Source: an uncultured Bacteroidales bacterium
Lineage (GTDB): Bacteria > Bacteroidota > Bacteroidia > Bacteroidales > UBA932
Assembly: GCA_900319405.1 (NCBI GenBank)
Contig: ONOH01000007.1
Coordinates: forward strand, 865 to 64,864
DNA length: 64,000 nt
Reading direction: 5' to 3'
Program-made: the position numbers and the translations under genes
Part shown: piece after piece, positions 3,146 through 60,692 of the stretch
How the letters are laid out: each line of letters starts with the position of its first letter
How positions within the stretch are numbered: position 1 is the stretch's first letter
The notes under the pieces: model-generated
The model's input: the letters and a program-made list of their open reading frames with translations, nothing else
Told to the model about the DNA's origin: nothing
Databases searched by the model: none

Positions 3146-3234
3146 TAAAACATTGAGTGCCAGCGCCTTATGGATAATCCTCTGCGCAAAAAGTGCAGAG
3201 GATTATCAGTAACACGATGATAATCAGCGTGTTA
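3146..3234. repeat. 89-bp tripartite palindromic element, copy 1
   Basis: Arms 3146-3170 and 3210-3234, core 3176-3204, 5-nt spacers. The terminal TTA is the stop codon of the convergent gene. Confidence 0.93.
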
Positions 3235-3873
3235 CTGAATATAGGACAGAATGAGATTGGCCACTTGCTCTTCCGTGTGGCCGTCGGTGCTCAGGACGAG
3301 GTCGTAATTGCGGGCGTCGAAGCGGCTGACGCCGGCATGGCGCCGGATAAAGTTCTCACGAGCCTGGTCAATGGCCTCAATCAGGGAGATGGCAGACGCT
3401 TCGTCCAGTCCTTGCTTTCTCACGATTCGCCGGATTCGCTTGTCCTTGGATGCGGTAATGAACACGTTCAGCGTATTGGGATGGTCTTTGAAAACGAAGA
3501 ATCCCGATCGTCCGGCAATCACGCACGACCCCATCTGGGCAAATTCCTGAAGAATTCCCACCTCGGCCTTATAGATGTGATCCGATGTGACTTCGACGGA
3601 GAACTCCTGGGTGAACTTGCCATCCAGTCCCAGCGCATTGGCCGATGGAGTCGGCGCAATCCGCTTGAGGAAGTCGTTCAGCCAGCTTTTCTTTTCTCCT
3701 TTCAGTTTCTCAATTTGGCTTTCAGTCAGGTTAAACTGCTTTTGAAGGGATTCCACCAGCTGCTTGTCGCAGTACCGGACATTCAGTTTTTCGGCCAGGA
3801 TGCTACCCACCGTATGGCCACCGGAGCCGACTTCGCGGCTGATGGTAATGACAAAAGGCTCTTGCTTGTTCAT
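3232..3873 (-). CDS. Cytidylate kinase-like family protein
   Basis: N-terminal ITISREVGSGG P-loop, CVIAGR and YDLVLST motifs; TATATTTG promoter box at 3893-3900 (-). Confidence 0.85.
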   Translation of the reverse strand: MNKQEPFVITISREVGSGGHTVGSILAEKLNVRYCDKQLVESLQKQFNLTESQIEKLKGEKKSWLNDFLKRIAPTPSANALGLDGKFTQEFSVEVTSDHIYKAEVGILQEFAQMGSCVIAGRSGFFVFKDHPNTLNVFITASKDKRIRRIVRKQGLDEASAISLIEAIDQARENFIRRHAGVSRFDARNYDLVLSTDGHTEEQVANLILSYIQ

Positions 3874-3920
3874 AAAAACAAAAATTATCCTACAAATATA
3901 ATCCTTTTTGCCCGATAAGC

Positions 3921-5048
3921 CTACTCCGGGAGAAGGCGGCGGAGGCGCTCCAGGCTGTGGCCCACCTGCTCGCGCGTGGCGGCATCGGCCTCGCTCAGGT
4001 ACAGCGCTTCCACGTCGGGAAGGTAGGTGAGGTAGTGGGCGTCGGCAATGTACTGCGCGGCGGCGGCGCGCACCAGGGGCGAGTCGTCAAAGAGCAGGCC
4101 CTGCACCCAGCGTTTGGCGTCCCAGGAGGAGTGCTCCTTGAGCCATTGGAGCGCCTGCAGCTTCTCCGCTTCGCTACCGTAGAAGAAGGTCTGGAGGCAG
4201 GAGCTCTCCTTCTTCAAATCCTCGATGCTCATCAGGCATTCGCGATTCACCAGCGAGGCGTCCTGCAGGGCGGGATCCGTGGAAAAACGCTGCGGAAGCG
4301 CTTCCTCTCCCAGCACCCAACGCACCATCCGGGCAATCATCCACATCTTGCCGGGGGTGGCTTCGGGGTGGGCGATGGTGCAGAACACGCGCCCCTTGCC
4401 ATAGTTGTTCCCCAGGAAGAAAGGCCGATTGTTGGTCATATTCGCCGGAGCGTCCCCTTCCTCGTGCACGTCGCTGAGCATGGTGGCGAACTCGGTGTAG
4501 CCACCCTCGGCCGGAATAAGGACCGGTCCTTCGTAGTACATACAGAAAAGGGTATCGGCCTGTGCGTACTCGGGGAAGAGGCGCTTGCCTTCCTCGGTGA
4601 GCCGGAACGCCGCATTGCCGTGGCCGCGATTATCGTGTTCCCGGTCGATGGCGCAGGCCCCGCTGATGCCGAGGCAGGTGTAGTCGGGGGTGTCGGAGAA
4701 GAGATAGGCCCCGGCGCAGATGCCCACGGCCCCGCCGCCGCGCGCGACGAACTCCTTGATGCGGCGCACGTTCTCTCCGCCCAGGTTCAGGTATTGCCGA
4801 CTGCCGCCCCCGCCGGGGATCACAATCGCGTCCAGCGAGTCCAGCACCCCGCGGGCGATGTCTCCCGTGGTGATGGTCCTCACGTTCAGGTCTCCGTCCA
4901 GGCGGCAGGCCGCCACGGCTTCCCAAATGCACGTCTGTGCACCGCCATACCCGTCAAAAACCCCCACTTTGCGAAGGGGCTGCTCCTGCCGGGCGCAGGA
5001 GGCGCTCACCAGCGCAAGCGCCGTCCAAAAGATGATGCTGCTTTTCAT
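3921..5048 (-). CDS. Lipoprotein with BPL-N / class I glutamine amidotransferase-like domain and C-terminal HEAT-like region
   Basis: Start moved to ATG 5048 (MKSSIIFWTALALVSASC lipobox). IPGG, GICAGAY nucleophile elbow and HPE motifs. Confidence 0.7.
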   Translation of the reverse strand: MKSSIIFWTALALVSASCARQEQPLRKVGVFDGYGGAQTCIWEAVAACRLDGDLNVRTITTGDIARGVLDSLDAIVIPGGGGSRQYLNLGGENVRRIKEFVARGGGAVGICAGAYLFSDTPDYTCLGISGACAIDREHDNRGHGNAAFRLTEEGKRLFPEYAQADTLFCMYYEGPVLIPAEGGYTEFATMLSDVHEEGDAPANMTNNRPFFLGNNYGKGRVFCTIAHPEATPGKMWMIARMVRWVLGEEALPQRFSTDPALQDASLVNRECLMSIEDLKKESSCLQTFFYGSEAEKLQALQWLKEHSSWDAKRWVQGLLFDDSPLVRAAAAQYIADAHYLTYLPDVEALYLSEADAATREQVGHSLERLRRLLPE

Positions 5049-5134
5049 AGCTGCAAGATAGCCATTCTCCGCTGCTTTTGCAAGAGCTACGGCCCTTCCG
5101 GGAAAAATAGATTGATATTCTGCCGAAAAATTCG

Positions 5135-6490
<1,356 letters not shown>

Positions 6491-6502
6491 TAACGCGACG
6501 CA

Positions 6503-6591
6503 TAATGCGCTGAAAATCAGCGTGCTACAGAAAATCCTCTGCGCTTTTTGCGCAGAGGATTTTCTGTAAACGATTGGCCAGCAATCGTTTA
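6503..6591. repeat. 89-bp tripartite palindromic element, copy 2
   Basis: Arms 6503-6527 and 6567-6591, core 6533-6561 (T5 loop). Lies between convergent eno and aldo/keto reductase genes. Confidence 0.93.
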
Positions 6592-6596
6592 CAGAA

Positions 6597-7931
6597 TTAC
6601 AGCCGATCCTGTCTCAGATCTTCCACGTACCGGGCGATGCGCTGCAGTTGCCGGGGGATGGGTATGCTCTGGGGGCAGTGGGAGAGGCACTCGCCGCAGC
6701 CGATGCAGTGATCGGCCTGGCGGACGGTGGCCACGGCCCTGTCGTAGCTCACCAGATAGGCCTTCTTGAGCCGGGCATAGTCTTTCTGCTTGCTGCTCTG
6801 GGCATAGGTGCCTTCGGTGATGGCCCGGTTGTAGTGCTGGAAGGTACCGGGGATGTCGATGCCCCAGGGGCAGGGCATGCAGTACTTGCAGTCGGTGCAG
6901 TTCACCAGGGGATATTCCATCATCTGGGTGGCCATCTGCTCCAGGAACTCCAGTTCCTCTTCGTTGAGGGGCTTGAAGTGGCCGAAGGTCTTGATGTTGT
7001 CCAGCAGCGGGTCCATCGAGGTCATTCCCGACAGGATGCACAGGACGCGGGGATAGGTGCCGCAGAAGCGGAAGGCCCAGGAGGCGATGCTCCGCTCGGG
7101 TTCCCGCTGCTTCATCTGGCGGGCGATGCCCTCCGGCACGTTGGCCAGCCGGCCGCCCAGCAGGGGTTCCATGATCACGATGGGGATTTCCCGCTTGTCC
7201 AGCTGTTCGTAGAGGTAATCGGCATTGACGTTCCGGACGCCGTCGGCGTGGGTCCAGTCCACGTAGTTCATCTCGATCTGGCAGAAGTCCCAGAGCATTT
7301 CCCCGCTGTCGTACATTTCCATGAAGGTGTCGAACTCGTGCTGCGCGCCGTGGAACGAAAAGCCCAGGTTGCGGATGCGCCCGGCCTCTTTTTCCTTGAG
7401 CAGGAAGTCGACCATCCCGTTTTGCACGTAGCGCTGGTTGAAAGCGTCCTTTCCGCCCCGGCCGATGGCGTGAAGAAGATAGTAGTCGAAGTAGTCGGTC
7501 CTGAGCTGTTCGAACGAGTCGTGGTACATTTTGATGGAGGCCTCGGGAGACTGGTCGCCGAAGTTGGACAGCTTGGTGGCAATGAAATAGTTCTCCCTCG
7601 GATGCCGGCTCAGGGCGATGCCCGCCGCCTTTTCGCTCTGGCCCATCAGATAGGCCGGGGAGGTGTCGAAGTAATTCACCCCGTGCGCGATGGCGTAGTC
7701 CACCATCTCGTTCACGGCCTCCTGGTCAATCACGCGCTTGCCGTCCTGCTCGATCATCGGCCAGCGCATGCAGCCGAAGCCCAGGGCCGATATCCGGTCC
7801 CCGTTCCGCGGATTCTCCCGCATCAGCATCTGTTCCGGCCCTTCTTCCGTCCGGGGGGCCGATGTCTTGGGGGCGCAGGCCGCGGCCACCGCCGCCGCAC
7901 CGCTTATCTTAATGAAATCTCGTCTATCCAT
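6597..7931 (-). CDS. Tat-exported aldo/keto reductase with C-terminal 4Fe-4S dicluster domain
   Basis: MDRRDFIK twin-arginine signal, LGFGCMR and NYFDTSPAY motifs, two C-terminal CxxCxxCxxxCP-type motifs. Confidence 0.88.
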   Translation of the reverse strand: MDRRDFIKISGAAAVAAACAPKTSAPRTEEGPEQMLMRENPRNGDRISALGFGCMRWPMIEQDGKRVIDQEAVNEMVDYAIAHGVNYFDTSPAYLMGQSEKAAGIALSRHPRENYFIATKLSNFGDQSPEASIKMYHDSFEQLRTDYFDYYLLHAIGRGGKDAFNQRYVQNGMVDFLLKEKEAGRIRNLGFSFHGAQHEFDTFMEMYDSGEMLWDFCQIEMNYVDWTHADGVRNVNADYLYEQLDKREIPIVIMEPLLGGRLANVPEGIARQMKQREPERSIASWAFRFCGTYPRVLCILSGMTSMDPLLDNIKTFGHFKPLNEEELEFLEQMATQMMEYPLVNCTDCKYCMPCPWGIDIPGTFQHYNRAITEGTYAQSSKQKDYARLKKAYLVSYDRAVATVRQADHCIGCGECLSHCPQSIPIPRQLQRIARYVEDLRQDRL

Positions 7932-7946
7932 ATGCTTGTCAATTTT

Positions 7947-8006
7947 GATCCTTCGTCATTTCATTCCTCAGGATGAGCATTGTCATTCTGAACGAAGTGA
8001 AGAATC
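7947..8006. repeat. Inverted doublet of TGTC-tagged REP-like units
   Basis: GATCCTTCG...CTCAGGATGA followed by TGTCATTCTGAACGAAGTGAAGAATC. Confidence 0.8.
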
Positions 8007-8007
8007 G

Positions 8008-9483
8008 TTAGATGTGCTGTATTCTGCCATTCACCGTTATGGCGCTGATGGGGCGGGATGGGCAGAGGAACTCACAGGCCCCGCAGCCGGTGCAGATTTC
8101 CTCGGCCACTGTCGGAATCTGCATTCCGTCCTTTTCCACCATCCGGATGGCTCCGGAGGGACACGCCTGCGCGCACTTGCCGCACTGGGCCTTGCCGGTG
8201 GCGCTCACGCACAGTTCCAGGTTCACCCGGGAGGTTCCCACGCGGTACTGCGTCTTTTCCTCGCGCGTAACCTTGCCGATGGCTCCCGCCGGGCAAAGCT
8301 CGCTGCAGCGCGTGCATTCCGGCCGGCACCAGCCTTTCTCGAAGCTCATTTCCGGCTGCATCAGGTGCTCCAGGCTGCCGGAAGGCCGCAGCACGTTGTT
8401 GGGGCACTCGGCCACGCACAGCTGGCAGGCCGTGCAGCGGCGGTAGAAGTCCTTCACGCTCCTGGAGCCGGGAGGGGTCAGGGGCACTTCGCGCGAGGGG
8501 GCCTGCTTGGGCAGGACATCGGCAAAACCGCCGTCCACCTTCTTGGCGGCCTCCTGGGCCCGGGCCTCGACGCCCTTGAGCGCAGCGGCACCCGCGACGG
8601 TCACCATTCCGGCCATCATCGCCCGGCGTCCACTGTCATTCCGGGCGGTCTTGCCCGCTCCCCAAGCAAAGCGATAATTCAAGGCATCAAACTTGCAAGC
8701 GCCGATGCAGTTGAAACAGTCCACGCAGCGGGAATGGTCGATAAACTCCGTATCCTTGCCGATGGCAATGCACTGGGCCTTGCAATGCTGCTCGCAGGCC
8801 TTGCAGTGCTTGCACTTGTCGTGGTCTATCAGGGGACGGAACATCGCGAAGCGGGAAAGGAAACCCAGCGTGGTGCCCACCGGGCAGATGGTGTTGCACC
8901 AGGTGCGGCCGCCCTTGAAGGACAGGGCCACGACGACCACCAGCGTAGCCACGGCCACGATGAAGGTGGGGACGCTGCGAAGCCAGACCTCCTTCTGGTA
9001 GAAGGCATAGCTGCCCCAGCGCTCCGAAAGGCCGGCCAGAAGGTTGTTTCCCCACAGCCACACGGGCTGCAGGAGGTTCTGCACCATTCGGCCGTAGGCG
9101 CTGTAGGGGGCCAGTAGGGCCACGGCCGCCTGGACGCCCAGGATGAGCAGCACCACAAAGAGCACCCATACGCCGTAACGGAGCCACTTGAGCTCTTTGG
9201 TAAACCTGTAAGGGTTCTTGCTCCGGTGGGTTCCCAGCCAGGAAACACCGTCCTGGAATACGCCCAGCGGGCAGATGACGGAACAGTATACGCGGCCGCA
9301 CACCAGCGTAAGCAGCACCAGGGCAACGATTACGCCCACATTCAGGGCAAGCACGGCCGGCAGAAACTGCACTTTGGCCATCCAGCCCAGGTATCCGTGC
9401 AGGGCGCCCGTGAAATCCAGGAACAGGAGTGTAATCCCTATCCAGAACAACCAGGCCAAGAAAACTCTGATTTTCTTTAACAT
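8008..9483 (-). CDS. Membrane-anchored polyferredoxin (NapH/NapF-like 4Fe-4S protein)
   Basis: N-terminal TM helices with GRVYCSVICPLG and GRTWCNTICPVG, followed by several CxxCxxCxxxC(P) motifs. Start ATG 9483. Confidence 0.85.
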   Translation of the reverse strand: MLKKIRVFLAWLFWIGITLLFLDFTGALHGYLGWMAKVQFLPAVLALNVGVIVALVLLTLVCGRVYCSVICPLGVFQDGVSWLGTHRSKNPYRFTKELKWLRYGVWVLFVVLLILGVQAAVALLAPYSAYGRMVQNLLQPVWLWGNNLLAGLSERWGSYAFYQKEVWLRSVPTFIVAVATLVVVVALSFKGGRTWCNTICPVGTTLGFLSRFAMFRPLIDHDKCKHCKACEQHCKAQCIAIGKDTEFIDHSRCVDCFNCIGACKFDALNYRFAWGAGKTARNDSGRRAMMAGMVTVAGAAALKGVEARAQEAAKKVDGGFADVLPKQAPSREVPLTPPGSRSVKDFYRRCTACQLCVAECPNNVLRPSGSLEHLMQPEMSFEKGWCRPECTRCSELCPAGAIGKVTREEKTQYRVGTSRVNLELCVSATGKAQCGKCAQACPSGAIRMVEKDGMQIPTVAEEICTGCGACEFLCPSRPISAITVNGRIQHI

Positions 9484-9557
9484 AATCCTTTTATAATTGT
9501 TGTACACAAACATACGAAAAAATTTCTTATATTTGCAATCCAATAAAACGAAAAACT

Positions 9558-10124
9558 ATGTTACCCAAAGCCAAGGAAATCGTAGACGCAATGTCCGTCA
9601 AGATGCAGGACGCCGTAGAGTACCTGGAAGAAGACCTCAAGAACTACCGTGTGGGCAAGGCTTCCCCGGCCATCCTGAATCCCGTGATGGTGGACTATTA
9701 CGGCACCGCCACACCGCTGAACCAGGTGGCCTCCGTCACTACGCCGGATGCCAAGACCATCGCCATCCAGCCTTGGGAGCGTTCCATGATTGCCAAGATT
9801 GAAAAAGCCATCCTGGATGCCAACGTAGGGCTCACCCCGTCCAACAACGGAGACATCATCCGCTGTATGGTTCCCGCCCTCACCGAAGAGCGTCGCAAAG
9901 AGCTCATCAAGAAGGCCAAAGCCCAGGGTGAAACTACCAAGGTCACCATCCGCAATGCCCGCAGGGACGGCATAGACCTCCTCAAGAAAGCCCAGAAGGA
10001 AGAAGGTCTCTCCGAAGACGGGGAGAAGGAAGGCGAGGGAGAACTCCAGAAAGTCACCGACAAGTGGGTGAAGAAAGTGGACGAAATCATCGCCGCCAAG
10101 GAAAAAGACATCCTCACCGTGTAA
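9558..10124 (+). CDS. frr: Ribosome recycling factor
   Basis: VDYYG..PLNQVA, IQPWE, P.LTEERRKEL and IRNARRD motifs; TATATTTG box at 9528-9535. Confidence 0.96.
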   Translation: MLPKAKEIVDAMSVKMQDAVEYLEEDLKNYRVGKASPAILNPVMVDYYGTATPLNQVASVTTPDAKTIAIQPWERSMIAKIEKAILDANVGLTPSNNGDIIRCMVPALTEERRKELIKKAKAQGETTKVTIRNARRDGIDLLKKAQKEEGLSEDGEKEGEGELQKVTDKWVKKVDEIIAAKEKDILTV

Positions 10125-10972
10125 TGGCCACACGTGTAGCGATTCAAGGATACAAGGGCTGCTTTCACGAACAGGCAGCCCGTCTTTTTTATTCTTCCCC
10201 CGCCGGTCATCCCGAGCGCGGCGAAGAATCCCTCTCCATCGTCGAATGCGACAGCTTCGAGCAGCTCTATGAGGCCCTGGACGAAGGTCGGGCCGATGCT
10301 GCCGTAATGGCCATCGAAAACACGGTCTCCGGCGGCCTGTTGCACAACTTCGAGCTCCTGAGGCTGAAGAGACGAAGGGTGAAAGGGGAGGTGTACATCC
10401 GCATCGGCCAGAATCTGATGGCCCTGCCGGGGCAGACCCTGGAGGATATCCGCGAGGTCCGCACGCATTATATGGCCATCAATCAGACCCGCCCGTGGTT
10501 CGAGAAGAACGCCCCGTGGATTCGCTTGACCGAGAGCGACGATACGGCCAAAAGCGCCGCCCAGCTGGCCAGGACCGGAGAGAAGGGGGTGGGTGCCGTG
10601 GCATCGGCCCTGGCAGCGCAACTTTACGGGCTGGAAATCCTGGCCCCGGACATCGAGACGCACAAGCAGAATTTCACCCGCTTCCTCATCCTGGACGAGC
10701 GCCTCCGCCCCGACGGACCCGACAAGGCGCTCCTGTGCTTCACCCTGCCGCACAAGCCCGGCTCCTTGGCGCAGATCCTCACCATCCTTTCGTTCTACGA
10801 AATGAACCTCACCCGCATCCAGTCGCTGCCCATCCCCGGCCGCGAATGGCAGTATTTCTTCTATATCGACATCAAATTTACAGACTATACGCGGTACACC
10901 CAGGCGCTTCAGGCCATCCGTCCCCTCCTGGAAGATCTGGAGGTCCTGGGAGAATACAAAGCCGCCCTTTAG
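10124..10972 (+). CDS. pheA: Prephenate dehydratase
   Basis: VAIQGYKGCFH, AIENTVSG, NFTRF and ACT-domain NLTRIQS.P motifs. The start overlaps the frr stop (TAATG). Confidence 0.93.
   Translation: MATRVAIQGYKGCFHEQAARLFYSSPAGHPERGEESLSIVECDSFEQLYEALDEGRADAAVMAIENTVSGGLLHNFELLRLKRRRVKGEVYIRIGQNLMALPGQTLEDIREVRTHYMAINQTRPWFEKNAPWIRLTESDDTAKSAAQLARTGEKGVGAVASALAAQLYGLEILAPDIETHKQNFTRFLILDERLRPDGPDKALLCFTLPHKPGSLAQILTILSFYEMNLTRIQSLPIPGREWQYFFYIDIKFTDYTRYTQALQAIRPLLEDLEVLGEYKAAL
10206..10230 (+). repeat. REP-like unit embedded in the pheA coding sequence
   Basis: GTCATCCCGAGCGCGGCGAAGAATC resembles the REP consensus and encodes GHPERGEES. Confidence 0.6.
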
Positions 10973-10990
10973 ACAACGGAACTTAACAAA

Positions 10991-12325
10991 ATGATCATTC
11001 CCCCAGCCCGCAGAACCTCATCTGTGAAAGAATACTATTTCTCCCTCAAGAACAGGGAAATCGCCGCGCTCAATGCCGACAGGGCCGCCCGTGGCCTGGA
11101 CCCGGTCATCAACCTGGGGGTCGGGTCGCCGGACGGAGCCCCTCCGGACGAGGCCGTGGAGGCCCTCTGCCGCTGCGCCCGCAACCCCCGCAACCACGGC
11201 TACCAGGCTTACACCGGCCTTCCGGAGCTTCGCGAAGCCATGGCCGACTGGTACCGCACGTGGTACGGCGTGACCCTGGACCCCTCCTCCGAGATTCAGC
11301 CCCTGATGGGCTCCAAAGAGGGCATCCTTCTGCTGTCGCTGGCCTTCCTGAACCCCGGCGACGGGGTGCTGGTGCCCAATCCCGGCTATCCCACCTACAC
11401 ATCGGCCGCCCGCCTGTGCGAGGCCCGGATTGTCCCTTACGACCTGGTGGAGGCCGACGGCTGGTACCCCGACTTCGAGGCCCTCGAGAAGCTGGACCTC
11501 GCGGGCGTAAAGATTATGTGGACCAATTATCCCAACATGCCCACGGGAGCCCCTGCCCGGGAGGATATCTTCGAAAAGCTGGTTGACTTTGCCCGCCGCC
11601 ACGGCATTCTCCTTGTCAATGACAACCCTTACAGCTTCATCCTCAACGAGCCCCGCTCCCTCCTGTCCGTCCCCGGTGCCCGCGAGTTCTGCCTGGAGAT
11701 GAACTCCCTGTCCAAGAGCCACAACATGGCCGGCTGGCGCATGGGAATGATGGTGGGTGCGGCCGATGTCATCCGGGAGCTCCTAAAGGTAAAGACCCAG
11801 ATGGACTCCGGAATGTTCCGGGGCATCCAGGAGGCGGCCGTTGAGGCGCTCCGGGCCCCGTCGGCCTGGTACGAGTCACTTGGTGCTGAGTACCGTCGCC
11901 GCCAGGGGGTGGCCCGCCGCATCATGGACAGCCTGGGCTGTACCTACGACCCCGCTGCCGGCGGCCTTTACGTCTGGGGCCGGGTTCCGTGTGCAAAAAC
12001 GGCCCCTGGTGCACACGGAGCTGCGAAAAAAGACTTTCCGTGTGCAAAAACGGCCCCTGGTGCACACGGAGCTGCGGAAAAAGACCTTCCGTGTGCAAAA
12101 ACGGCCCCTGGTGCACACGGAGTTGCCGTCCCCGGAGGGTCGCCCGCCGAGGCGTGGAGTGACCGCATCCTTTACGGGGCGGGCGTGTTCCTCACTCCGG
12201 GCTTCATCTTCGGCAGCGGCGGCGAGAATCATCTCCGCATCTCCCTCTGCGCAGACGTGCCTACCCTGGAACGGGCCCTGGAAAAAATAGCGTTTTTCAT
12301 AAACGCTGGAGAGTCAGATGTTTAG
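10991..12325 (+). CDS. Class I/II PLP-dependent aminotransferase in the aromatic amino acid operon, carrying an in-frame repeat insertion
   Basis: NLGVGSPD, GSKEG, NYPNMPTG, DNPY and SLSKSHNMAGWR (PLP lysine) motifs. Confidence 0.9.
   Translation: MIIPPARRTSSVKEYYFSLKNREIAALNADRAARGLDPVINLGVGSPDGAPPDEAVEALCRCARNPRNHGYQAYTGLPELREAMADWYRTWYGVTLDPSSEIQPLMGSKEGILLLSLAFLNPGDGVLVPNPGYPTYTSAARLCEARIVPYDLVEADGWYPDFEALEKLDLAGVKIMWTNYPNMPTGAPAREDIFEKLVDFARRHGILLVNDNPYSFILNEPRSLLSVPGAREFCLEMNSLSKSHNMAGWRMGMMVGAADVIRELLKVKTQMDSGMFRGIQEAAVEALRAPSAWYESLGAEYRRRQGVARRIMDSLGCTYDPAAGGLYVWGRVPCAKTAPGAHGAAKKDFPCAKTAPGAHGAAEKDLPCAKTAPGAHGVAVPGGSPAEAWSDRILYGAGVFLTPGFIFGSGGENHLRISLCADVPTLERALEKIAFFINAGESDV
11985..12122. 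repeat. Three tandem 51-bp units, each with a 34-bp palindrome, in frame in the aminotransferase
   Basis: TCCGTGTGCA-AAAACGGCCCCTGG-TGCACACGGA at 11986, 12037 and 12088. Confidence 0.95.
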
Positions 12326-12386
12326 CGAAAGTCCCCTATGTAAAAACGCAGGGGTAATGTGTAAAGAATCGGTAATGAGTGAATTA
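12300..12386. repeat. Degenerate copy of the tripartite element
   Basis: TAA-ACGCT-GGA-GAG-TCA-GATGT-TTA, 5-nt gap, AGTCCCCTATGTAAAAACGCAGGGGT core variant, then TAA-AGAAT-CGG-TAA-TGA-GTGAA-TTA. Confidence 0.6.
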
Positions 12387-13232
12387 ACGAAAACGGTAGG
12401 AGTGATCGGCCTGGGGCTTATCGGCGGGTCCATGGCCATCGACCTCAAGCGCCGCGGCTACGCGCAGACGGTGCTGGGCGTGGAGCAGGATTCCGTTGCG
12501 GCCGAGGCGGCCCGGACCATCGGCCTGGTGGACGAGACGGTCTCCTATGAAGACTGCATCCGCAGGGCCGATATCGTAGTGGTGGCTGTCCCGGTGAGCT
12601 CTGCCGTGAATCTGCTCCCTGACATCCTGGACCGCTTTACCGACGGGCAGATCGTCATCGACGTGTGCTCCACCAAGGGCCGGATCTGTCACGCGACGCA
12701 GTATCATCCCCGGCGGGGACAGTATGTGAGCACGCACCCGATGGCGGGAACGGAGTATTCCGGCCCCTGGGCGGCACAGCCGGGCCTTTTCGACGGGCGC
12801 GCCTGCATCTTTGCCGACAGCGAAAAGAGCAGCCCCCGGGCCTTGAAGGCCGTCGAGGAGCTGTATGATGTCCTCCACATGCGCCCCATCTATATGAACG
12901 CCGACCAGCACGACGTTCACACCGCCTACGTCTCCCACATCTCCCATATCACGTCCTTCGCCCTGGCTCTCACCGTCCTGGACAAGGAGAAGGACGAAAA
13001 GCATATCTTCGACCTGGCCTCCGGCGGCTTCTCCTCCACGGTGCGCCTGGCCAAGTCCAGTGCCGACATGTGGGTTCCCATCCTCTCCCAGAACCACGAC
13101 AATGTCCTCCGCGTGATGGATACCTACATCGGCAAGATGCAGGCCTTCCGCGATGCTGTGGCGGGCTATGACGAGGAAAAAATCCGGGAGCTCATCCGGG
13201 AGGCCAATAAGATCAAGAAGATTCTCCGCTGA
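12375..13232 (+). CDS. tyrA: Prephenate dehydrogenase
   Basis: GLGLIGGS Rossmann motif, DVCSTK, HPMAG.E and HD...AYVSH motifs. Start moved to ATG 12375. Confidence 0.92.
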   Translation: MSELTKTVGVIGLGLIGGSMAIDLKRRGYAQTVLGVEQDSVAAEAARTIGLVDETVSYEDCIRRADIVVVAVPVSSAVNLLPDILDRFTDGQIVIDVCSTKGRICHATQYHPRRGQYVSTHPMAGTEYSGPWAAQPGLFDGRACIFADSEKSSPRALKAVEELYDVLHMRPIYMNADQHDVHTAYVSHISHITSFALALTVLDKEKDEKHIFDLASGGFSSTVRLAKSSADMWVPILSQNHDNVLRVMDTYIGKMQAFRDAVAGYDEEKIRELIREANKIKKILR

Positions 13233-13250
13233 CAATCAGAATGACAGAAT

Positions 13251-14342
13251 ATGACACACGAACTTGACATCATACCCGGGACCGAGTGGGGTTTTTTCAC
13301 CCTTCCGCGCCCCATGTGCATTGCAGGCCCGTGCAGTGCCGAGACCGAGGAGCAGGTGATGGAAACCGCCCGCGGTCTCAGTGAATTCGGGATTCACGTT
13401 TTCCGCGCCGGCATCTGGAAGCCGCGCACCCATCCGGGCTCTTTCGAGGGGGTGGGTGTGACCGGCCTCAAGTGGCTCAACAAGGTAAAGGAAACCTACG
13501 GAATGAAGGTGTGCACGGAAGTGGCCACCGAAAAACACGTGCGGGAGTGCATCAATTACGGGGTGGACATCATCTGGATAGGCGCCCGCACCAGCACCAA
13601 CCCCTTCCTGATGCAGGAGATTGCCGACGCCCTTTCCGGCACCGACATCCCCGTCCTGGTGAAAAACCCCGTGAACCCGGACCTGGACCTGTGGGTGGGC
13701 GCCCTGGAGCGCCTGAACCGGGCCGGCATCCGCAAGCTGGGCGTGGTGCACCGGGGTTTTTCCACATCGGCCAGTATCCCGTACCGCAACGACCCCGGCT
13801 GGAAGATTGCCATCGAACTGCGCACCCGCTATCCGCAGATGGCGTTTTTTGCCGACCCGTCCCATATGGCGGGAGACCGCCGTTACCTGCAGGAGCTTTC
13901 CCAGCGTGCGATGGACCTGGGCCTGGACGGGCTGATGGTGGAAAGCCACTGCAACCCCTCCTGCGCCTGGAGCGATGCCCGGCAACAGCTCACCCCGCAG
14001 GATTTGAGGACCCTTCTGGAGCGCCTCGTCATCCGCGAAAACAGTTCCGAGGACAAAAACTACAGAGATGGGATTGACACCCTTCGCGCCCGCATCGATG
14101 TCATCGACGAGCAGCTGCTGACCCTCCTTCAGGAACGGATGGAAGTGAGCCGCAGCATCGGCCGTTACAAAAAAGAGCACAACGTGGCCATTCTTCAGGC
14201 GGTCCGATGGGAGCAAATCCTGTCCGATATGGTAAAGCGCGCCGACGCAATGGACATCTCCAGGGAGGCCGTCCTGGCCATCATGACCGCCATTCACGAC
14301 GAATCCGTGAGGGTTCAGAACAAGATTTTGGAACAATTATGA
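13251..14342 (+). CDS. Bifunctional DAHP synthase / chorismate mutase
   Basis: IAGPCSAE, RAGIWKPRT, IGART and DPSH motifs; C-terminal LRARIDVIDEQLL chorismate mutase domain. Confidence 0.93.
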   Translation: MTHELDIIPGTEWGFFTLPRPMCIAGPCSAETEEQVMETARGLSEFGIHVFRAGIWKPRTHPGSFEGVGVTGLKWLNKVKETYGMKVCTEVATEKHVRECINYGVDIIWIGARTSTNPFLMQEIADALSGTDIPVLVKNPVNPDLDLWVGALERLNRAGIRKLGVVHRGFSTSASIPYRNDPGWKIAIELRTRYPQMAFFADPSHMAGDRRYLQELSQRAMDLGLDGLMVESHCNPSCAWSDARQQLTPQDLRTLLERLVIRENSSEDKNYRDGIDTLRARIDVIDEQLLTLLQERMEVSRSIGRYKKEHNVAILQAVRWEQILSDMVKRADAMDISREAVLAIMTAIHDESVRVQNKILEQL

Positions 14343-14971: not shown

Positions 14972-14972
14972 A

Positions 14973-15962: not shown

Positions 15963-15987
15963 CGGCCTGTCGGGGAGGCGATATCAG

Positions 15988-16076
15988 TAAACGACTGACA
16001 CTCAGTCGTTTACTAATAATCCTCTGCGCAAAAAGTGCAGAGGATTATCCATAAAATATTGACACTCAATATTTTA
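15988..16076. repeat. 89-bp tripartite palindromic element, copy 3
   Basis: Arms 15988-16012 and 16052-16076 are both perfect dyads; core 16018-16046. Between convergent pfkA and lpxK. Confidence 0.95.
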
Positions 16077-16083
16077 TGGATTT

Positions 16084-17079: not shown

Positions 17080-17132
17080 ATCATACAAAGGTAGCCATTC
17101 CTATGATGATTTCATAGAGTACTTTTACTCTT

Positions 17133-18620: not shown

Positions 18621-18623
18621 AAT

Positions 18624-18722: not shown

Positions 18723-18769
18723 ACTCCAGGACATCCATAGTATTCTACATGTTGTGGAGATTCCATAGG

Positions 18770-18801
18770 AAAATACCTGCGGCTTCGGGGGCCGCAGGTA
18801 T
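18770..18801 (-). terminator. Probable intrinsic terminator downstream of the pilin-like gene
   Basis: ATACCTGCGGC-N7-GCCGCAGGTAT stem with a short T-run on the - strand. Confidence 0.65.
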
Positions 18802-26626: not shown

Positions 26627-26715
26627 TAACACCATGACAATCAGGAAGTTATGTTAAATCCTCTGCGCAAAAAGTGCAGAGGATTATCTATAACGCATTG
26701 ACAATCAATGCGTTA
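26627..26715. repeat. 89-bp tripartite palindromic element, copy 4
   Basis: Arms 26627-26651 and 26691-26715, core 26657-26685. Between convergent tsf and the sugar porter gene. Confidence 0.94.
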
Positions 26716-39708: not shown

Positions 39709-41061
39709 ATGTCGTTCTACTCCTACTTCCGAATCAGCAAGCCGCGGGCGCAGAAAGTGCCGGCGCAGGAGGTGGATGCCGCTTACAGACGCCTTCGCTC
39801 CCGGACGTTCTGGGGTGTGACGCTGGCCTATACGCTCTACTATGTCTGCCGGATGACCCTGGGCGTGGTGAAGCAGCCGCTCATCGACGGCGGCGTGCTC
39901 ACGGCCGGGCAGCTGGGCATCATCGGATCGGCCTTCTACTTTGTCTATGCGGTGGGGAAGTTCACCAACGGCTTCATTGCCGACTATTGCAACATCCGCC
40001 GCTTCATGGCCGTTGGGATTGGCATATCGGCCGTGGTGAACCTTATTCTGGGGGTGCTGGGCCTTCTTCGGGGGCCGCTGGCGCTGGGGTCGATGTTCGT
40101 TCTGCTTACTTTCGCCGTCCTCTGGGGCGTGAACGGATGGATGCAGAGCATGGGTTCGCCGCCCGGCACCATCAGCCTGTCGCGCTGGTACCCGCTTTCG
40201 CGGCGCGGCACCATGTACAGCATTTTCAGCTCCACCCCGCAGCTCGGGAAGGCCGTCTCCATGATCATGACGGGCTTCATCGTAGCGGCGGCGGGCTGGC
40301 AGTGGGGCTTCCTGGCCGCAGCGGTGGCGGGCTTTATCGGCCTTGCCGTTTCACTCATCTTTATTGCCGACACGCCCGAGAGCGAAGGGCTCCCTTCCGT
40401 GCAGGAGCTCTCCGGAGAGGAAGTCCGGCCGATGGACAAGCGTCCCACCCGGGAACTTCAGAAGTGGGTGTTCCGGCATCCGGGCATCTGGGTCATTGCC
40501 ATCTCCACGGCGTTTCTGTACATCACCCAGCACGCCGTCAGTGACTGGGGCGTCCTCTTCCTGCAGAAGCAGAAAGGCTTCTCGCTGGAGCGGGCGGCGC
40601 AGATTATCGGCCTGGCCGAGATTTTCGGGGTGGCCGGAAATCTTTGCGCGGGATGGTTGTCCGACGTGGCGTTCCGGGGCAACCGCGTACGTCCGGTGGT
40701 CCTTTCCGGCATTCTGGCCGTACTTTCGCTCTTCGCCTTCCTCTTTGGGCAGGGAGGCTTCGGAGCCAATATGGCCTTTGTAGCCGTTTTCAGCTTTGCC
40801 TTTTCGGTGGTCTTCTGCATCGTCGCCGGCCTGATGGCCCTCGACTTCGTTCCCCGCAGGGCCACCGGTGCCGCCCTGGGCATCGTGGGCATTTCCAGCT
40901 ACGCCGCCGCCGGCGTGCAGAGCGTCGCCAGCGGCTTCCTCATCCAGGGATTCACCTCCGAGGGCATCTATGACTTCGGCCCCGTTTCCATCTTCTGGAT
41001 CATTGCCTGCCTCCTCGCCTTCGTCCTTCCCGTCCTGGGCTGGAAATACCTCCGCCACTAG
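39709..41061 (+). CDS. MFS transporter, GlpT/UhpC (organophosphate) type
   Basis: YYVCR, NGWMQSMG.PP, RWYP..RRGT and DTPE..GLP motifs; about 12 TM helices. Confidence 0.85.
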   Translation: MSFYSYFRISKPRAQKVPAQEVDAAYRRLRSRTFWGVTLAYTLYYVCRMTLGVVKQPLIDGGVLTAGQLGIIGSAFYFVYAVGKFTNGFIADYCNIRRFMAVGIGISAVVNLILGVLGLLRGPLALGSMFVLLTFAVLWGVNGWMQSMGSPPGTISLSRWYPLSRRGTMYSIFSSTPQLGKAVSMIMTGFIVAAAGWQWGFLAAAVAGFIGLAVSLIFIADTPESEGLPSVQELSGEEVRPMDKRPTRELQKWVFRHPGIWVIAISTAFLYITQHAVSDWGVLFLQKQKGFSLERAAQIIGLAEIFGVAGNLCAGWLSDVAFRGNRVRPVVLSGILAVLSLFAFLFGQGGFGANMAFVAVFSFAFSVVFCIVAGLMALDFVPRRATGAALGIVGISSYAAAGVQSVASGFLIQGFTSEGIYDFGPVSIFWIIACLLAFVLPVLGWKYLRH

Positions 41062-42683
41062 CGGGGGCCTTTTGCCGTTATGGGCCAAAACACGGCGGGC
41101 TTGTAGCGGAGGCTGAGGTAGAGGGCGCGGATGGCCAGATGGGTGAAGTAGGCGGCCATCAGGATGTGCAGGCCGATTTCCGGGGACAGGTTTCCTATGC
41201 TCATGTCCAGGGCTCCCATTTCGATGCCATCCATGTCCAGGCTTCCGGCGTTAAGGGCATCGGCCAGCCATCGGCCGGCAAACCATACTGCAAAGAAGCC
41301 GATGGCGCAAAGCAAAGTACTGTTCCTGAGGTCTTTGGATGCGGTTGCGCCAGTAAAAATTCCGTCCCAGGTGAAAGCCGGGCAGCCGATGAGCGGCATC
41401 AGCAGGAGCCAGGGAATGAAGGGCCGGGCCGCATCCACGACCGCAGAGTCTGAAGTCATAAGGCGGAAGAGGGGCGTGCCGCCAAAGCCATACAGCAGCA
41501 TGAACACCGCCGCCAGACCGAAGCCCCAGGCAAAGGCCCCGCGTACGGTGGAACGAACGCCGTCGGGCGACTGTCCGCCGATGAACCGCCCCGTCAACGC
41601 TTCGCCCGCATAAGCAAAACCGTCGGTGAAATAGCTGAAAACCATCAGCAGTTTCATCAGGATGGTGCTCACCGCCAGCATTTGGTCTCCGAGCCGTGCA
41701 CTCAGGACGGTAAAGCCGATATACACCGCAATCATCCCCACCGATCGCAGGAAAAGGTCCCGGTTCAGGGTAAAAAACGCACGTTTTGCTCCGCCTGCCG
41801 CTTCCGTCCCGCCCGTAGGTTTTGCACGCCGACCTGTAACATGCTGACAGTCAGGCGTTTCTGTGAAATCCTCTGCGCAAAAAGTGCAGAGGATTTTCCA
41901 TAATCTACTGATTTTCAGTCGATTATGGACCAGGCACAGGGCGAGGAGAAGGCCGGTCCACTGGGCAATCACGGTACCCCAGGCCACGCCGGCAAAACCC
42001 AGGGAGGGCAAAAAGAGAAAGCCGAAACCCAGGCCCAGCGACAGGAGGATATTGCAGAGGTTGATCCACAGGTCCACCAGCATAGGCCGGAAGCTATCCT
42101 GAAGGCCGATGAACCACCCCTTCAGCGCAAAAAGAGAAAGCGTAGCCGGGGCCGCCCAGATGCGGATGTAGAAGTATTGGGTGGCCAGCGCCTGCACCTC
42201 GGGGGAACAGTCAACGACCAGGAAAGCCAGCTGCACCACCACCCACTGCAGGGCAATCAGCGCTACCCCCGAAAGCAGCGCAATCCGCAGCGCCCGCCCC
42301 AGGATACGATAAATGCTATTTATAGCTTCTGTACGTTGGCTTTGAAAGGCATCATCAGGCGCCCCGCCGGCCCCGGAATTTTGCGTGACCAAAATCGAAG
42401 AGGGCGTCGCGGGGGATGATAGGGGGCAGAGCGTCCTCAGAAAGCCGTAGGCCTGGGCGGTGAGGCCGCCGGTGCCGGCGCGGAGGAATCCGAAGTTCCA
42501 GTACAGGAGGTCGAAGAGCATCGTGCCCACGGAAATGCCGCCGATAAAGGCCGCTCCGGAAATGTTGCCGATGGCGCCGAGGTGCCCCACCACGGCGATA
42601 TCCACCATCCCCACCAAGGGCACGGTGATATTGGCCAGGATGCTGGGCCCCGCCAGACGGAGGATTTCCCTGTTCAGCTTCAT
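41058..42683 (-). CDS. MATE efflux transporter (DinF-like) with three apparent in-frame insertions
   Basis: ILANITVPL.G.VD.A.VGHL, FGFLR.GT.GLTAQA.G and SYFTDGFAYAGEAL.G motifs; 541 aa. Confidence 0.88.
   Translation of the reverse strand: MKLNREILRLAGPSILANITVPLVGMVDIAVVGHLGAIGNISGAAFIGGISVGTMLFDLLYWNFGFLRAGTGGLTAQAYGFLRTLCPLSSPATPSSILVTQNSGAGGAPDDAFQSQRTEAINSIYRILGRALRIALLSGVALIALQWVVVQLAFLVVDCSPEVQALATQYFYIRIWAAPATLSLFALKGWFIGLQDSFRPMLVDLWINLCNILLSLGLGFGFLFLPSLGFAGVAWGTVIAQWTGLLLALCLVHNRLKISRLWKILCTFCAEDFTETPDCQHVTGRRAKPTGGTEAAGGAKRAFFTLNRDLFLRSVGMIAVYIGFTVLSARLGDQMLAVSTILMKLLMVFSYFTDGFAYAGEALTGRFIGGQSPDGVRSTVRGAFAWGFGLAAVFMLLYGFGGTPLFRLMTSDSAVVDAARPFIPWLLLMPLIGCPAFTWDGIFTGATASKDLRNSTLLCAIGFFAVWFAGRWLADALNAGSLDMDGIEMGALDMSIGNLSPEIGLHILMAAYFTHLAIRALYLSLRYKPAVFWPITAKGPR
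41837..41925. repeat. 89-bp tripartite palindromic element, copy 5, inside the MATE CDS
   Basis: Arms 41837-41861 and 41901-41925, core 41867-41895. Confidence 0.92.
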
Positions 42684-58166: not shown

Positions 58167-60593
58167 ATGAAACGAACCATGATGTTTCTGCTGGCACTCG
58201 TACTGTGCGTGACCAGCCTGGCTCAGGGCCGCCCTCAACGTCCGGAGGCCAAGGACAAAGCGGAAGAGAAGAAGGAAGCTCCCGCTCCGGTAAACCTCAA
58301 CTTCTCCAAGGGCCTTCTTTCCGTGGCCCAGAATGAAAAAGACTGGTATCTGGAGGTGCCCGACAGCCTGCTGGGCCGCCGTATGCTGGCGGTGACCCGC
58401 TATGTGGCCAACACGATGGGCGCCGGCGTCTATGGCGGAGAGCAGGTAAATGACGCGATGCTCTACTGGGAGAAGGCTCCCAACGGGAACCTGATTCTCC
58501 GGGTGGACGTCGTGAACGTGGAGGCTCCTTCGGAGGATATCATCGCCCAGGCGGTGCGCGTGAGCTCCGAGAACCCCATCGTGGCCTCCTTCAAGCCGGA
58601 GAAATCGGCCACGCCCGGCACCACGCGCATCAAGGCCAACAGCCTCTTCGAAGGTGACTTGCAGGTATTTTCGCTGGATGCCCGCACCAAGAAGGCGAAC
58701 AACCTGGGCGGCATCAAGGCCGATGCCAGCTTCATCCAGAGCATGCGCACCTATCCCATCAACACGGAGGTGACGGTGACCAAGACCTACACCTACAACC
58801 AGCCCCAGGGCGGCGCTCCCGGAGCCGCAGCTCCGCAGCAGCGTACCAACAGCCTCCCTGCCGGCCGTGAGGCGGGCGTGGTGACGGTGGTCCTCAACAC
58901 TTCTATCCTCCTGCTGCCCGAAAAGCCGATGCAACAGCGTTGGTTCGACCCCCGCGTGGGCTATTTCGCCGGCGGCTACACCCATTTCTCCGACGACCAG
59001 CAGGGCGTGGAGCAGATCCGCTACATCACCCGCTGGCGCCTGGAAGCCCGTCCCGAGGATGTGGAGAAGCAGAAAAGGGGAGAACTGGTGGAACCTGTCA
59101 AACCCATCATCTATTACATCGATCCCGCTACGCCCAAGCAGTGGCGCAAGCACCTGATCGCCGGCGTGAACGACTGGCAGGTGGCCTTCGAGCAGGCCGG
59201 CTGGAAAAACGCCATCCGGGGAGAGGAGTGGCCGGAGAATGCCGAGCAGCTGGGAATGAGTCTCGAGGACGCCCGCTTCTCCGTCATCCGCTATCTGGCT
59301 TCTCCCATCGCCAATGCCTACGGTCCCAACGTACACGACCCCCGCAGCGGTGAAATCCTGGAAAGCCATATCGGCTGGTATCACAATGTGATGACGCTGG
59401 TGCACGACTGGTATCAGATTCAGGTGGCCGCCGTGGATCCCCGCGCCCGTTCTTTCAAGTATGACGAAGACCTGATGGGAGACCTCATCCGTTTCGTGTC
59501 TTCCCATGAGGTGGGCCATACCCTGGGCCTTCGCCACAACAAGGGTTCCTCCAGCTTTACCCCGGTGGAGAAGCTCCGCGACAAGGAGTGGGTGGAAAAG
59601 CACGGCCACACCGTCTCCATTATGGACTACGCCCGTTTCAACTACGTGGCCCAGCCGGAGGACGGCATCGGCAAGGATGGCATCTATCCCCGCATCAACG
59701 ACTATGACAAATGGGCCATCGAATTCGGCTACAAGCCCACTTACATTGCCGATGCCAAGGAAGACCACCTGTGGTGGAACAAGGAAATCATCGCCCGCCT
59801 GAAGGCCCATCCCAACCTGTGGTTCGGCGGCGAGGGCTACGACACCGACCCCCGCGCCCAGAGCGAAGACCTGGGAGATGACGCCGTGGCCGCCAGCAAT
59901 TACGGCATTGCCAACCTCCAGCGCATCATCGGCCAGCTTCCCGAGTGGAACACCGAGGAGGCCAATACCCACACCAACCTGAACCGGATGTACAGCGCCC
60001 TGGTTCAGCAGTATGGCCGATATCTGGGTCACGTAGCGATGAACATCGGTGGCCGCTACATCACCTACAAGAGCGTGGAGCAGCCCGGCGATGTATATGC
60101 CCCCGTTCCCAAGGAGCACCAGAAAAAGTGCCTGGACTTCCTGAACCAGCGGCTGTTCATGAAGCCCTCCTGGCTGGTGGATCAGCCCTATATCTATGTC
60201 CTGACCGACTCTCCCGAAAGCAAGCTCTATCCGCTGGTGAACAACATCGTCAGCGCCAGTTTCCTCCTGGGCCTGGATCGTCTGGACCGGATGGCGAACC
60301 TGGGTGACTATGCTCCGGAAGCGTACCTGGAAGACCTTCACCGGATGGTGTTCACGGAACTGGAGAAGGGCGGAAAGGTTTCCAGCTACCGCCGTTACCT
60401 CCAGACCCGCTTTGTGACCGCGGCACTGGAAGTGGTGAACGGGCAGCGTGCCAAGTCTTCGCCCAGCCGCGCCCTCCTTCTGGGAGAACTCCTGGACATC
60501 CAGAAGAAGGCCGCCAAAGGCAAAGGCCCCGATACGGCCACCAAGGCCCACTGGACCGCCCTCGCCACCCAAATCGAGAAAGGCTTGAAATAG
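58167..60593 (+). CDS. Secreted zinc-dependent metalloprotease
   Basis: Signal peptide; DPRVGYF, KPI.YYIDP, DPRSGEI, HEVGHTLGLRHN and SIMDY motifs. Confidence 0.9.
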   Translation: MKRTMMFLLALVLCVTSLAQGRPQRPEAKDKAEEKKEAPAPVNLNFSKGLLSVAQNEKDWYLEVPDSLLGRRMLAVTRYVANTMGAGVYGGEQVNDAMLYWEKAPNGNLILRVDVVNVEAPSEDIIAQAVRVSSENPIVASFKPEKSATPGTTRIKANSLFEGDLQVFSLDARTKKANNLGGIKADASFIQSMRTYPINTEVTVTKTYTYNQPQGGAPGAAAPQQRTNSLPAGREAGVVTVVLNTSILLLPEKPMQQRWFDPRVGYFAGGYTHFSDDQQGVEQIRYITRWRLEARPEDVEKQKRGELVEPVKPIIYYIDPATPKQWRKHLIAGVNDWQVAFEQAGWKNAIRGEEWPENAEQLGMSLEDARFSVIRYLASPIANAYGPNVHDPRSGEILESHIGWYHNVMTLVHDWYQIQVAAVDPRARSFKYDEDLMGDLIRFVSSHEVGHTLGLRHNKGSSSFTPVEKLRDKEWVEKHGHTVSIMDYARFNYVAQPEDGIGKDGIYPRINDYDKWAIEFGYKPTYIADAKEDHLWWNKEIIARLKAHPNLWFGGEGYDTDPRAQSEDLGDDAVAASNYGIANLQRIIGQLPEWNTEEANTHTNLNRMYSALVQQYGRYLGHVAMNIGGRYITYKSVEQPGDVYAPVPKEHQKKCLDFLNQRLFMKPSWLVDQPYIYVLTDSPESKLYPLVNNIVSASFLLGLDRLDRMANLGDYAPEAYLEDLHRMVFTELEKGGKVSSYRRYLQTRFVTAALEVVNGQRAKSSPSRALLLGELLDIQKKAAKGKGPDTATKAHWTALATQIEKGLK

Positions 60594-60603
60594 CCGCAAA
60601 TCG

Positions 60604-60692
60604 CAAGTGTGTGATACTGATGCATTTACGTAAAATCCTCTGCGCTTTTTGCGCAGAGGATTTTACGTTATGTGCTGATAATCAGCGTATTA
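60604..60692. repeat. 89-bp tripartite palindromic element, copy 6
   Basis: Arms 60604-60628 (degenerate) and 60668-60692, core 60634-60662. Between the convergent protease and pgk genes. Confidence 0.9.

Follow-up and report, generated by a model that had tools for sequence, protein, structure and literature searches.

What is the 89-bp element with three dyads that recurs through this stretch of an uncultured Bacteroidales genome, and what acts on it? The original prediction proposed either a multi-site platform for a DNA-binding protein, recombinase or HUH nuclease, or a three-stem RNA or cruciform under structural selection. The results presented here are best explained by a repeat-plus-enzyme system of the REP/TIRtron type, whose IHF-palindrome-IHF design is that of BIME-1 turned inside out.

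Copy number, layout and positions of the element

Six copies with a 25-5-29-5-25 layout had been reported for the window (the whole stretch of 64,000 nucleotides analysed), and both their coordinates and their layout were verified. The combined arm, spacer and centre pattern gave 12 matches in the 64-kb window, compared to 0.00 across 100 shuffles.

3146..3234, + strand: copy 1; arms 3146-3170 and 3210-3234, centre 3176-3204, A5 loop on the + strand, between convergent genes
6503..6591, - strand: copy 2; centre 6533-6561, A5 loop on the - strand
15988..16076, + strand: copy 3; centre 16018-16046
26627..26715, + strand: copy 4; centre 26657-26685
41837..41925, + strand: copy 5; centre 41867-41895; lies in the central loop of a MATE transporter gene and is read in frame
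41058..42683, - strand: MATE gene (541 aa), which carries copy 5
60604..60692, - strand: copy 6; centre 60634-60662, A5 loop on the - strand

The final TTA of copy 1 doubles as stop codon of the minus-strand ORF 3232-3873. Convergent ORFs flank copy 2 (5183-6490 (+) and 6597-7829 (-)), copy 3 (15030-15962 (+) and 16084-16989 (-)), copy 4 (25439-26437 (+) and 26720-28141 (-)) and copy 6 (58179-60593 (+) and 60702-61955 (-)). Aligning contigs to positions 2500-17500 of the window gave no information, since the shared centre interrupts the unitigs.

The source genome (G000; 2.13 Mb), from a rumen Cryptobacteroides bacterium, contains 45 copies, not the hundreds that had been extrapolated, and two more that are degenerate. 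All but one of the 45 are intergenic and sited at gene 3' ends, the exception lying in frame within a gene. Twenty-five of the 44 intergenic copies are located between convergent genes and none between divergent genes, and for 41 of them a stop codon is found within 30 nt. The spacers, described as invariably 5 nt long, have this length on 80 of 90 sides, but measure 6 nt on seven, while three sides are without a detectable arm. The arm triplets, given as TAA/TGA/TCA/TTA, are better written as YAA/YTGA/TCAR/TTR. Since arm complementarity in G000 reaches 3-4 bp past TAA/TTA, the arms of this genome comprise about 33-35 bp. The suggested Rfam search returned no match in the window at the gathering threshold, and viral contigs searched with the element centre likewise gave none.

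A Y1/HUH transposase gene is flanked by the element

The statement that the window encodes no cognate enzyme is correct for the window itself, but a candidate is present on another contig (C55) of G000. Its stop codon is the first TAA of an element arm.

G000:C55:50039-50968: Y1/HUH transposase gene (protein P0002), flanked by two element copies

P0002 matches the Pfam family Y1_Tnp above cut-off (E 6e-7), and at least 90% of 104 homologues retain residues H58/H60 of the HUH motif (DHTH) and the catalytic tyrosine Y118. The structure closest to its AlphaFold model (pLDDT 91) is E. coli RayT, 4ER8 (Foldseek E 1.7e-5; VIA Z 13.6, next-best 9.2). By motif, catalytic tyrosine and the IS200-like fold of the model, P0002 is a Y1/HUH (TnpA-Y1) enzyme with predicted DNA-nicking activity. 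The model ends in a helical C-terminal tail of about 150 residues, for which there is a weak helix-turn-helix (HTH) lead (Atlas, 0.83); no Pfam HTH match occurred among the 104 family members.

G000 harbors a single full-length match to the gene. Twenty of 21 loci of the clade adjoin rpmH, the cassette pointing the same way as rpmH in 12 genomes and the opposite way in eight. A second cassette protein, P0003, is present in 21 of 30 homologous loci; it belongs to no family in Pfam, NCBIfam or Atlas, and its single-sequence fold prediction is of low confidence (pLDDT 42). The full-length Y1 family is nearly confined to the genus Cryptobacteroides, with one match, to the core domain only, in 300 genomes of the order. 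None of the other four Y1 genes of G000 was accepted as coding for the cognate enzyme, their flanks being devoid of multi-copy 18-mers. RNA contigs from two runs leave the Y1 gene uncovered, a gap that carries no information on its expression. An apparent 1.8-kb skip in these RNA contigs was considered as a cassette deletion and dismissed, as its letters are those of a strain variant of the second element's arm; this variant (L236) recurs in another run.

The centre follows the enzyme, the arms do not

Within the genus, an element unit (arm-39/41 bp-arm) lies within 1.5 kb of 27 of 30 homologous Y1 loci, and 19 loci are flanked on both sides (reversed control, 0). The pattern was matched in 29 of 400 genus genomes, and the nine closest Y1 orthologues in this set (58-75% identity) all reside in element-matching genomes. 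A geometry pattern that ignores the centre scored 262 vs 51 in the control for 16 homologue-positive genomes, and 59 vs 60 for 10 homologue-negative ones. Different enzyme lineages have different central palindromes but constant arms: centre similarity is 0.74-0.75 where enzymes are >65% identical and 0.36-0.40 where they are <55% identical, and Y1 paralogues within one genome have different flanking centres with the same arms. The overall Mantel correlation is weak (rho 0.16; 99 of 2000 permutations). Some homologue-positive genomes have few dispersed copies (none in G398, three in G099, seven in G050), and two genomes (G137, G416) contain one element each without a close Y1 orthologue. Of 21 genus genomes examined, 13 have an element in the MATE loop, mostly with the genome's own centre; the centre at this site agrees with the one flanking the enzyme gene in eight of 11 genomes and is non-cognate in the remaining three (G080, G081, G383).

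In each arm the IHF consensus WATCARN4TTR is present twice, arranged with two-fold symmetry about a W common to both, and is matched at both R positions (consensus and 35-bp footprint as given in PMC8421141). Among 298 arms from other genomes, chosen by centre alone, 146 inner and 168 outer halves had at most one mismatch, compared to 0.2% in shuffles. In 24 of 24 Bacteroidales genomes the symmetric site is commoner than its control, with 18-54 vs 0-8 occurrences in 11 genomes of the genus that are enzyme-negative. The arm motif is also enriched in intergenic DNA of G000 outside the elements (157 vs 67-71 shuffled). Self-complementarity of the arm N5 blocks, at 0.72 in G000, is 0.29-0.33 in five related genomes and 0.27 over the 298 arms. 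Because the consensus is enriched without the enzyme and self-complementarity is special to the source species, the arms are likely, on sequence grounds, to be sites for a host IHF-type protein and not RNA stems. Of the two original proposals, the multi-site platform to which a DNA-binding protein or an HUH nuclease would bind is supported by the Y1/HUH linkage and the IHF-type arms, while selection on three stems is not supported as a general feature. The single HU/IHF gene found in G000 (C25) codes for a protein with an Arg aligned with IHF-beta R46 (for the role of this residue, see 10.1101/057489); it has no equivalents of E44 and the intercalating Pro, and scores below all IHF cut-offs. 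An arm-end motif, SSTGRY-N3 (terminal TG..CA), is kept in relatives and mostly lost in G000.

Copies are rewritten in place

Copies of the element are rewritten and flipped at fixed sites. In 24 strain comparisons, all based on short-read assemblies and freed of element-only matches and of flanks below 90% identity, the centre was flipped in seven. Leaving out 6 of 48 arms with indels, the arms had diverged by 13.5% vs about 4% in the flanks, i.e., about threefold faster, and two-sided changes numbered 30, compared to 10.4 expected. Ordinary hairpins, a small control with shorter stems, were flipped in 0 of 12 cases vs 6 of 20 centres (p=0.043). As for the window, copy 6 has a flipped centre and an altered left arm in a close strain (L246), one arm loop of copy 3 fits the inverted orientation better (L235), and copy 4 is identical (L243). 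Between genomes G376 and G309, two orthologous sites hold different centre families, and three of five inversion junctions are without an element.

Comparison of filled and empty orthologous sites, as originally recommended, yielded no clean junction or target duplication: candidate sites in G266 vs G000 were too diverged, and candidate empty sites in G376/G309 resembled deletions or were ambiguous. In sets of 109 and 36 elements, direct repeats were in excess at none of the offsets, which would set the element apart from classical DDE-type MITEs.

Comparison with known repeat systems

No description of the element was found in the literature searched. TIRtrons with their TIRYT enzymes (Di Nocera 2013, PMC3733652) correspond to TnpA-Y1 subclass 2.1 (Quentin 2018, PMC6006769). 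Like these enzymes, P0002 is a long Y1/HUH protein with a C-terminal extension, and like TIRtrons, its gene is placed between repeats in inverted orientation that are self-complementary in part and are also found dispersed. The TIRYT motifs FQGRY, Y-x-x-L-NP and Y-x-WSS align with LFRPRY, YNYNNP and YRWNF of P0002, followed by the long tail. TIRYTs have a C-terminal HTH (Bac_DnaA_C/HTH_23/HTH_28); the P0002 tail is, as noted above, helical in the model, with a weak HTH lead and no Pfam HTH match in the family. Its nearest annotated relatives are plasmid transposases with GGGGWSAS-type flanking repeats, at 26-29% identity over the core only. In contrast to TIRtrons, the repeat beside the gene has three parts in a fixed arrangement, two arms of IHF consensus around a centre specific to the enzyme, and its ends read SSTGRY, with SSTGGY-N3 as terminal consensus, rather than GGGGWSAS, a partial resemblance only.

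With REPtrons (E. coli RayT/TnpA-REP 4ER8 with REP/BIME; Pseudomonas RAYT-REPIN) the system shares the enzyme fold, a single-copy gene at a fixed locus, here beside rpmH, cognate palindromes found both beside this gene and scattered over gene 3' ends, insertion in frame into a protein loop, and local tandem arrays (genomes G010 and G156). It differs in that the hairpin foot is without a GTAG/GTGG tag, a W-N4 spacer adjoining the centre on either side; in some relatives GTGG is present, but only about 35 bp from the centre, at both termini. Moreover, there is one central palindrome instead of a REP doublet, and P0002 is twice as long and reaches 45.2 bits vs a cut-off of 80 for the NCBIfam RAYT equivalog (REP_Tyr_transpos). 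Unlike IS200/IS605, the Y1 gene does not occur as multiple near-identical mobile copies. E. coli BIME-1/RIB, described as REP-IHF site-REP (PMC2817692), also contains an IHF consensus site within the repeat, which is assigned here by sequence match; however, the present element has two such sites, each two-fold symmetric, outside a single palindrome, rather than two inverted REPs around one IHF site.

Proposed mechanism and alternative explanations

We consider it probable, though well short of certain, that the repeat is spread and rewritten by the fixed chromosomal Y1/HUH transposase, with the centre as enzyme site and the arms as IHF-type host sites. The central palindrome would likely be the enzyme-specific recognition site, and each arm likely a site at which a homodimeric IHF-type protein bends the DNA. 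A dimer on each arm of about 35 bp could form a U-turn that returns the terminal TG..CA motif (SSTGRY-N3) to the foot of the palindrome, which would explain the fixed gap of 39-41 bp. The enzyme might bind a hairpin formed by the centre, whether on a single strand or in a cruciform, and then nick the DNA and rejoin it; new insertions would arise occasionally, and flips of resident copies, exchanges of half-elements and inversions between two copies more commonly. Arm self-complementarity in the source species may have been derived through such rewriting, or through template switching, rather than being required as an RNA structure. Characterized Y1 enzymes are described as acting on single-stranded DNA and needing a GTAG-type tag (PMC8266576); against the mechanism, IHF binds duplex DNA and the element has no one-sided tag.

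That the enzyme only spread the element, and that flips, palindromic arms and homogenized centres arose from template switching and gene conversion between palindromic copies, is a serious alternative, although we doubt it. Template switching is described as homogenizing inverted-repeat arms and inverting the spacer (PMC8604942), arm perfection is limited to the source species, and multi-copy centres, unlike unique hairpins, have donors in both orientations. However, the ordinary hairpins of the small, shorter-stemmed control remained unflipped in all 12 informative cases, and the exchange of entire centre families at orthologous sites, like the conformity of MATE-site centres with the enzyme-flanking version, would have had to proceed over only 29-39 bp of shared sequence.

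That the arms are recognized not by a host IHF-type protein but by P0003 or the helical C-terminal part of the transposase appears unlikely. The helical tail with its weak HTH lead and the presence of P0003 in most cassettes would suit it, but the arm motif is overrepresented both where the enzyme family is absent and outside the elements of G000, equals the IHF consensus including both R positions, and, as regards P0003, elements are present at loci without this protein. Still less probable is an element that acts mainly as an RNA device (bidirectional terminator or 3' stabilizer) with selection on its three stems. Its location near stop codons and between convergent genes, and the more stable folding of the G000 copies (mean -46 vs -38 kcal/mol in relatives), would fit; but the arms of relatives are not self-complementary, none of the three centres at positions 1-20000 of the window is terminator-like (one arm alone is), one copy is read through in frame, and the linkage to the enzyme is left unexplained. 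An RNA role may nevertheless exist as a secondary function of the enzyme-linked repeat.

Implications

The way in which RAYT-type enzymes move their repeats, or maintain them, is unresolved according to PMC8266576. The system reported here splits an enzyme-specific centre from invariant host-type arms, provides many natural enzyme-centre pairs for specificity-swap tests, and makes in-place flipping and replacement visible between strains. It links a TIRYT-like subclass to an abundant dispersed repeat, REP-like sequences being reported as not found with subclasses 2.1/2.3 (Quentin 2018, PMC6006769), and as a by-product offers a candidate symmetric binding consensus for a Bacteroidales IHF-type protein. 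More speculatively, and with the odds rather against it, P0002 may be a domesticated HUH enzyme on a relaxosome-like duplex platform, in which two homodimeric IHF-type U-turns bring the element ends onto a central palindrome that serves as exchangeable address. If so, resident copies would be flipped and rewritten to the enzyme's current address and DNA inverted between copies, and each paralogue would keep its own repeat population, with host-factor arms common to all.

Copies and placement

All six copies first noted in the window are real and have the layout described, the pattern giving 12 matches in the window against 0.00 expected by chance. The proposed comparison with known RNA families yielded no match in Rfam. 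The genome assembly (2.13 Mb, 89% complete) contains 45 centres plus 2 degenerate ones. The spacers, exactly 5 nt in the six copies of the window, have this length on 80 of 90 sides genome-wide; they measure 6 nt on seven, and the arm is absent on three.

According to our own gene calls, the 44 intergenic copies lie between convergent (25) or tandem (19) genes and never between divergent ones. A stop codon is found within 30 nt of 41 copies, and the TAA of an arm is itself the stop codon in 10. One copy is located in frame within a MATE gene; labels of genes other than MATE, Y1 and HU/IHF were assigned by reading translations. Scanning the genome collection for exact matches gave 90 stretches, and the 80 listed all belong to Bacteroidia/Bacteroidales MAGs, some of them labelled Candidatus Cryptobacteroides. 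Sequencing runs containing the region are mostly from bovine gut. Further features of the window are:

41058-42683, minus strand: MATE gene; across relatives it also varies by further in-frame insertions in loops and by peptides repeated in tandem
3121, 26542, 26598, 29086: second repeat family (GTCATTC..GCAGCGAAGAATCT type), copies 1 and 4 of the element have members directly upstream
17133-18417: ORFs resembling a HipA-type kinase and its N-terminal partner on reading the translation, in DNA that is low-scoring and atypical

The GTCATTC..GCAGCGAAGAATCT motif has 57 matches in the genome (control, 0), and we take the family to resemble CGTC-tagged REPs.

Association with a Y1/HUH enzyme

Y1_Tnp matches identified five genes in the genome:

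C55:50039-50968: P0002, 309 aa, predicted Y1/HUH transposase, gene with the first TAA of an element as its stop codon
C42:16639-17865, C30:45481-46485, C59:238-1167, C17:35871-36800 (loci L026-L029): Y1/HUH genes of another subfamily, about 310 aa

The C59 gene is flanked by a direct repeat of about 120 bp, and GGGAC-rich repeats occur downstream of the C17 and C59 genes.

A second element lies about 740 bp upstream of the P0002 gene, past the 183-aa ORF P0003 (L025:3103-3654), which is conserved inside the cassette in 21 of 21 clade loci; a family search with P0003 found no family. The HUH motif and the tyrosine of P0002 are conserved across homologues, and the closest structure to its confidently predicted model is E. 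coli RayT. In sequence it comes closest, among annotated proteins, to TIRYT-type plasmid proteins accompanied by GGGGWSAS repeats, a subclass in which Quentin 2018 (PMC6006769) reported no REP-like partners.

The element is associated with this enzyme. Of 400 genomes of the genus, 196 encode homologues of P0002; of 300 from the order, one does, with the core domain only. The element pattern is matched by 29 of the 400, which include the hosts of all nine closest orthologues; G137 and G416, with one element each and no close orthologue, are exceptions. Among the best 30 homologue loci, an arm-(39-42 bp)-arm unit is present in 27, on both sides in 19 (control, 0). A centre-free pattern gave 262 matches vs 51 for the control in homologue-positive genomes and 59 vs 60 in homologue-negative ones, and some homologue-positive genomes have few copies.

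The element is also modular, its centres varying with the enzyme lineage: close enzymes have highly similar centres, those of distant enzymes are no more alike than background, and an overall Mantel test of enzyme vs centre gave a weak correlation. G317 and G222 contain several centre families, each paralogue being flanked by its own. Of 21 clade loci, 20 have the cassette beside rpmH, in one orientation in 12 and in the other in 8, the two interleaved on the enzyme tree.

Arms resemble doubled IHF sites

The consensus of 298 arms from other genomes, picked by centre alone, is SSTGGY-nnn-YAAnnnnYTRWnWnWCARnnnnTTR. The bend that IHF makes in DNA is 160-180 degrees, and its kinks are spaced by about 9 bp; the IHF consensus is WATCARNNNNTTR and the footprint about 35 bp (PMC8421141). 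The arm corresponds to WATCARNNNNTTR twice, inverted about a shared W, and about half of the half-sites in the 298 arms are within one mismatch of it (shuffles, 0.2%). This W presumably marks the position of the protein dyad, as in the IHF-H' structure.

The symmetric site occurs 157 times in intergenic DNA of the genome outside elements, vs about 69 for the control, and exceeds its reversed control in 24 of 24 Bacteroidales genomes, one marginally. Since this enrichment is order-wide and includes enzyme-free genomes, the arm is likely a host-factor site. The IHF-like 25-mer reaches 332 vs 17 in G026, where some sites at contig ends are paired at a distance of 66 bp; the order-wide sites are a candidate regulon of an IHF-type protein. 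The genome's single HU/IHF gene encodes a protein with the equivalent of IHF-beta R46 and without E44 or the intercalating Pro (10.1101/057489), so that it is a plausible candidate for the reader of the arms.

Self-complementarity of the N5 blocks is strong in this genome (53-60 of 80 vs 22-38 expected; 0.72) but at chance level in five other genomes (0.29-0.33). The terminal GTGGC..GCCAC motif is mostly gone from the copies in this genome; 109 related elements retain its TG..CA at 99-100%. In the G376 and G309 clade (L298-L337), the centre families differ in a tail found on one side past this motif, possibly a directional tag.

Rewriting and exchange

A metagenome scan recovered 42 loci, yielding 24 strain pairs at 21 sites with flanks about 96% identical, all from short-read assemblies. 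Elements are rewritten at these sites: the centre is inverted in 7 of 24 pairs, arms diverge by 13.5%, and two-sided arm changes number 30 vs 10.4 expected, 12 being compensatory. Arm loops were better matched inverted in 5 of 42, and one arm variant was seen again in an independent run. Among ordinary hairpins, 0 of 12 cases showed a flip, vs 6 of 20 centres (p=0.043, with a small control and short-read assemblies).

The main rival to an enzymatic origin of these changes is enzyme-free template switching combined with gene conversion; the former is reported to make inverted-repeat arms alike and to invert the spacer (PMC8604942). Of 21 genomes, 13 have an element in the MATE loop, and its centre resembles the enzyme-flanking centre of the same genome (0.84 vs 0.50), with 3 exceptions in 11. 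At two orthologous sites, G376 and G309 hold different centre families, and 4 of 13 element sites of G266 syntenic with our genome are empty in the latter. Comparison of filled and empty sites and a repeat search defined no junction or target duplication.

DNA directly before the window (C44:163-539) is 96% identical to a contig (L245) bearing G266-type elements, which suggests that the region of the first ORF was exchanged recently.

Relation to known systems and proposed mechanism

The system works like a REPtron, and the element resembles a BIME-1 turned inside-out. Because the GTAG tag of REPtrons, the GGGGWSAS flanks of TIRYTs and the target duplication of classical MITEs were not found, and P0002 falls below the cut-off of the RAYT equivalog, we do not file it with these. 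Literature searches of article text found no description of the element; passages of PMC6006769, PMC3733652, 10.1101/119735, PMC8266576, PMC8421141, PMC5829579, PMC6606824, PMC2034462, PMC2817692, 10.1101/057489 and PMC8604942 were compared.

We favour a REP/TIRtron-like system. Binding and bending of the DNA, the catalytic step and what causes the flips are inferences within it. The centre would be the enzyme's address, and the arms would bend the DNA as IHF-type sites, which would set the geometry of the element and fold the terminal motif back onto the foot of the centre; nicking and rejoining by the HUH enzyme would then both spread the element and rewrite it in place. Since the copies sit at gene 3' ends, they may secondarily have a role in RNA.
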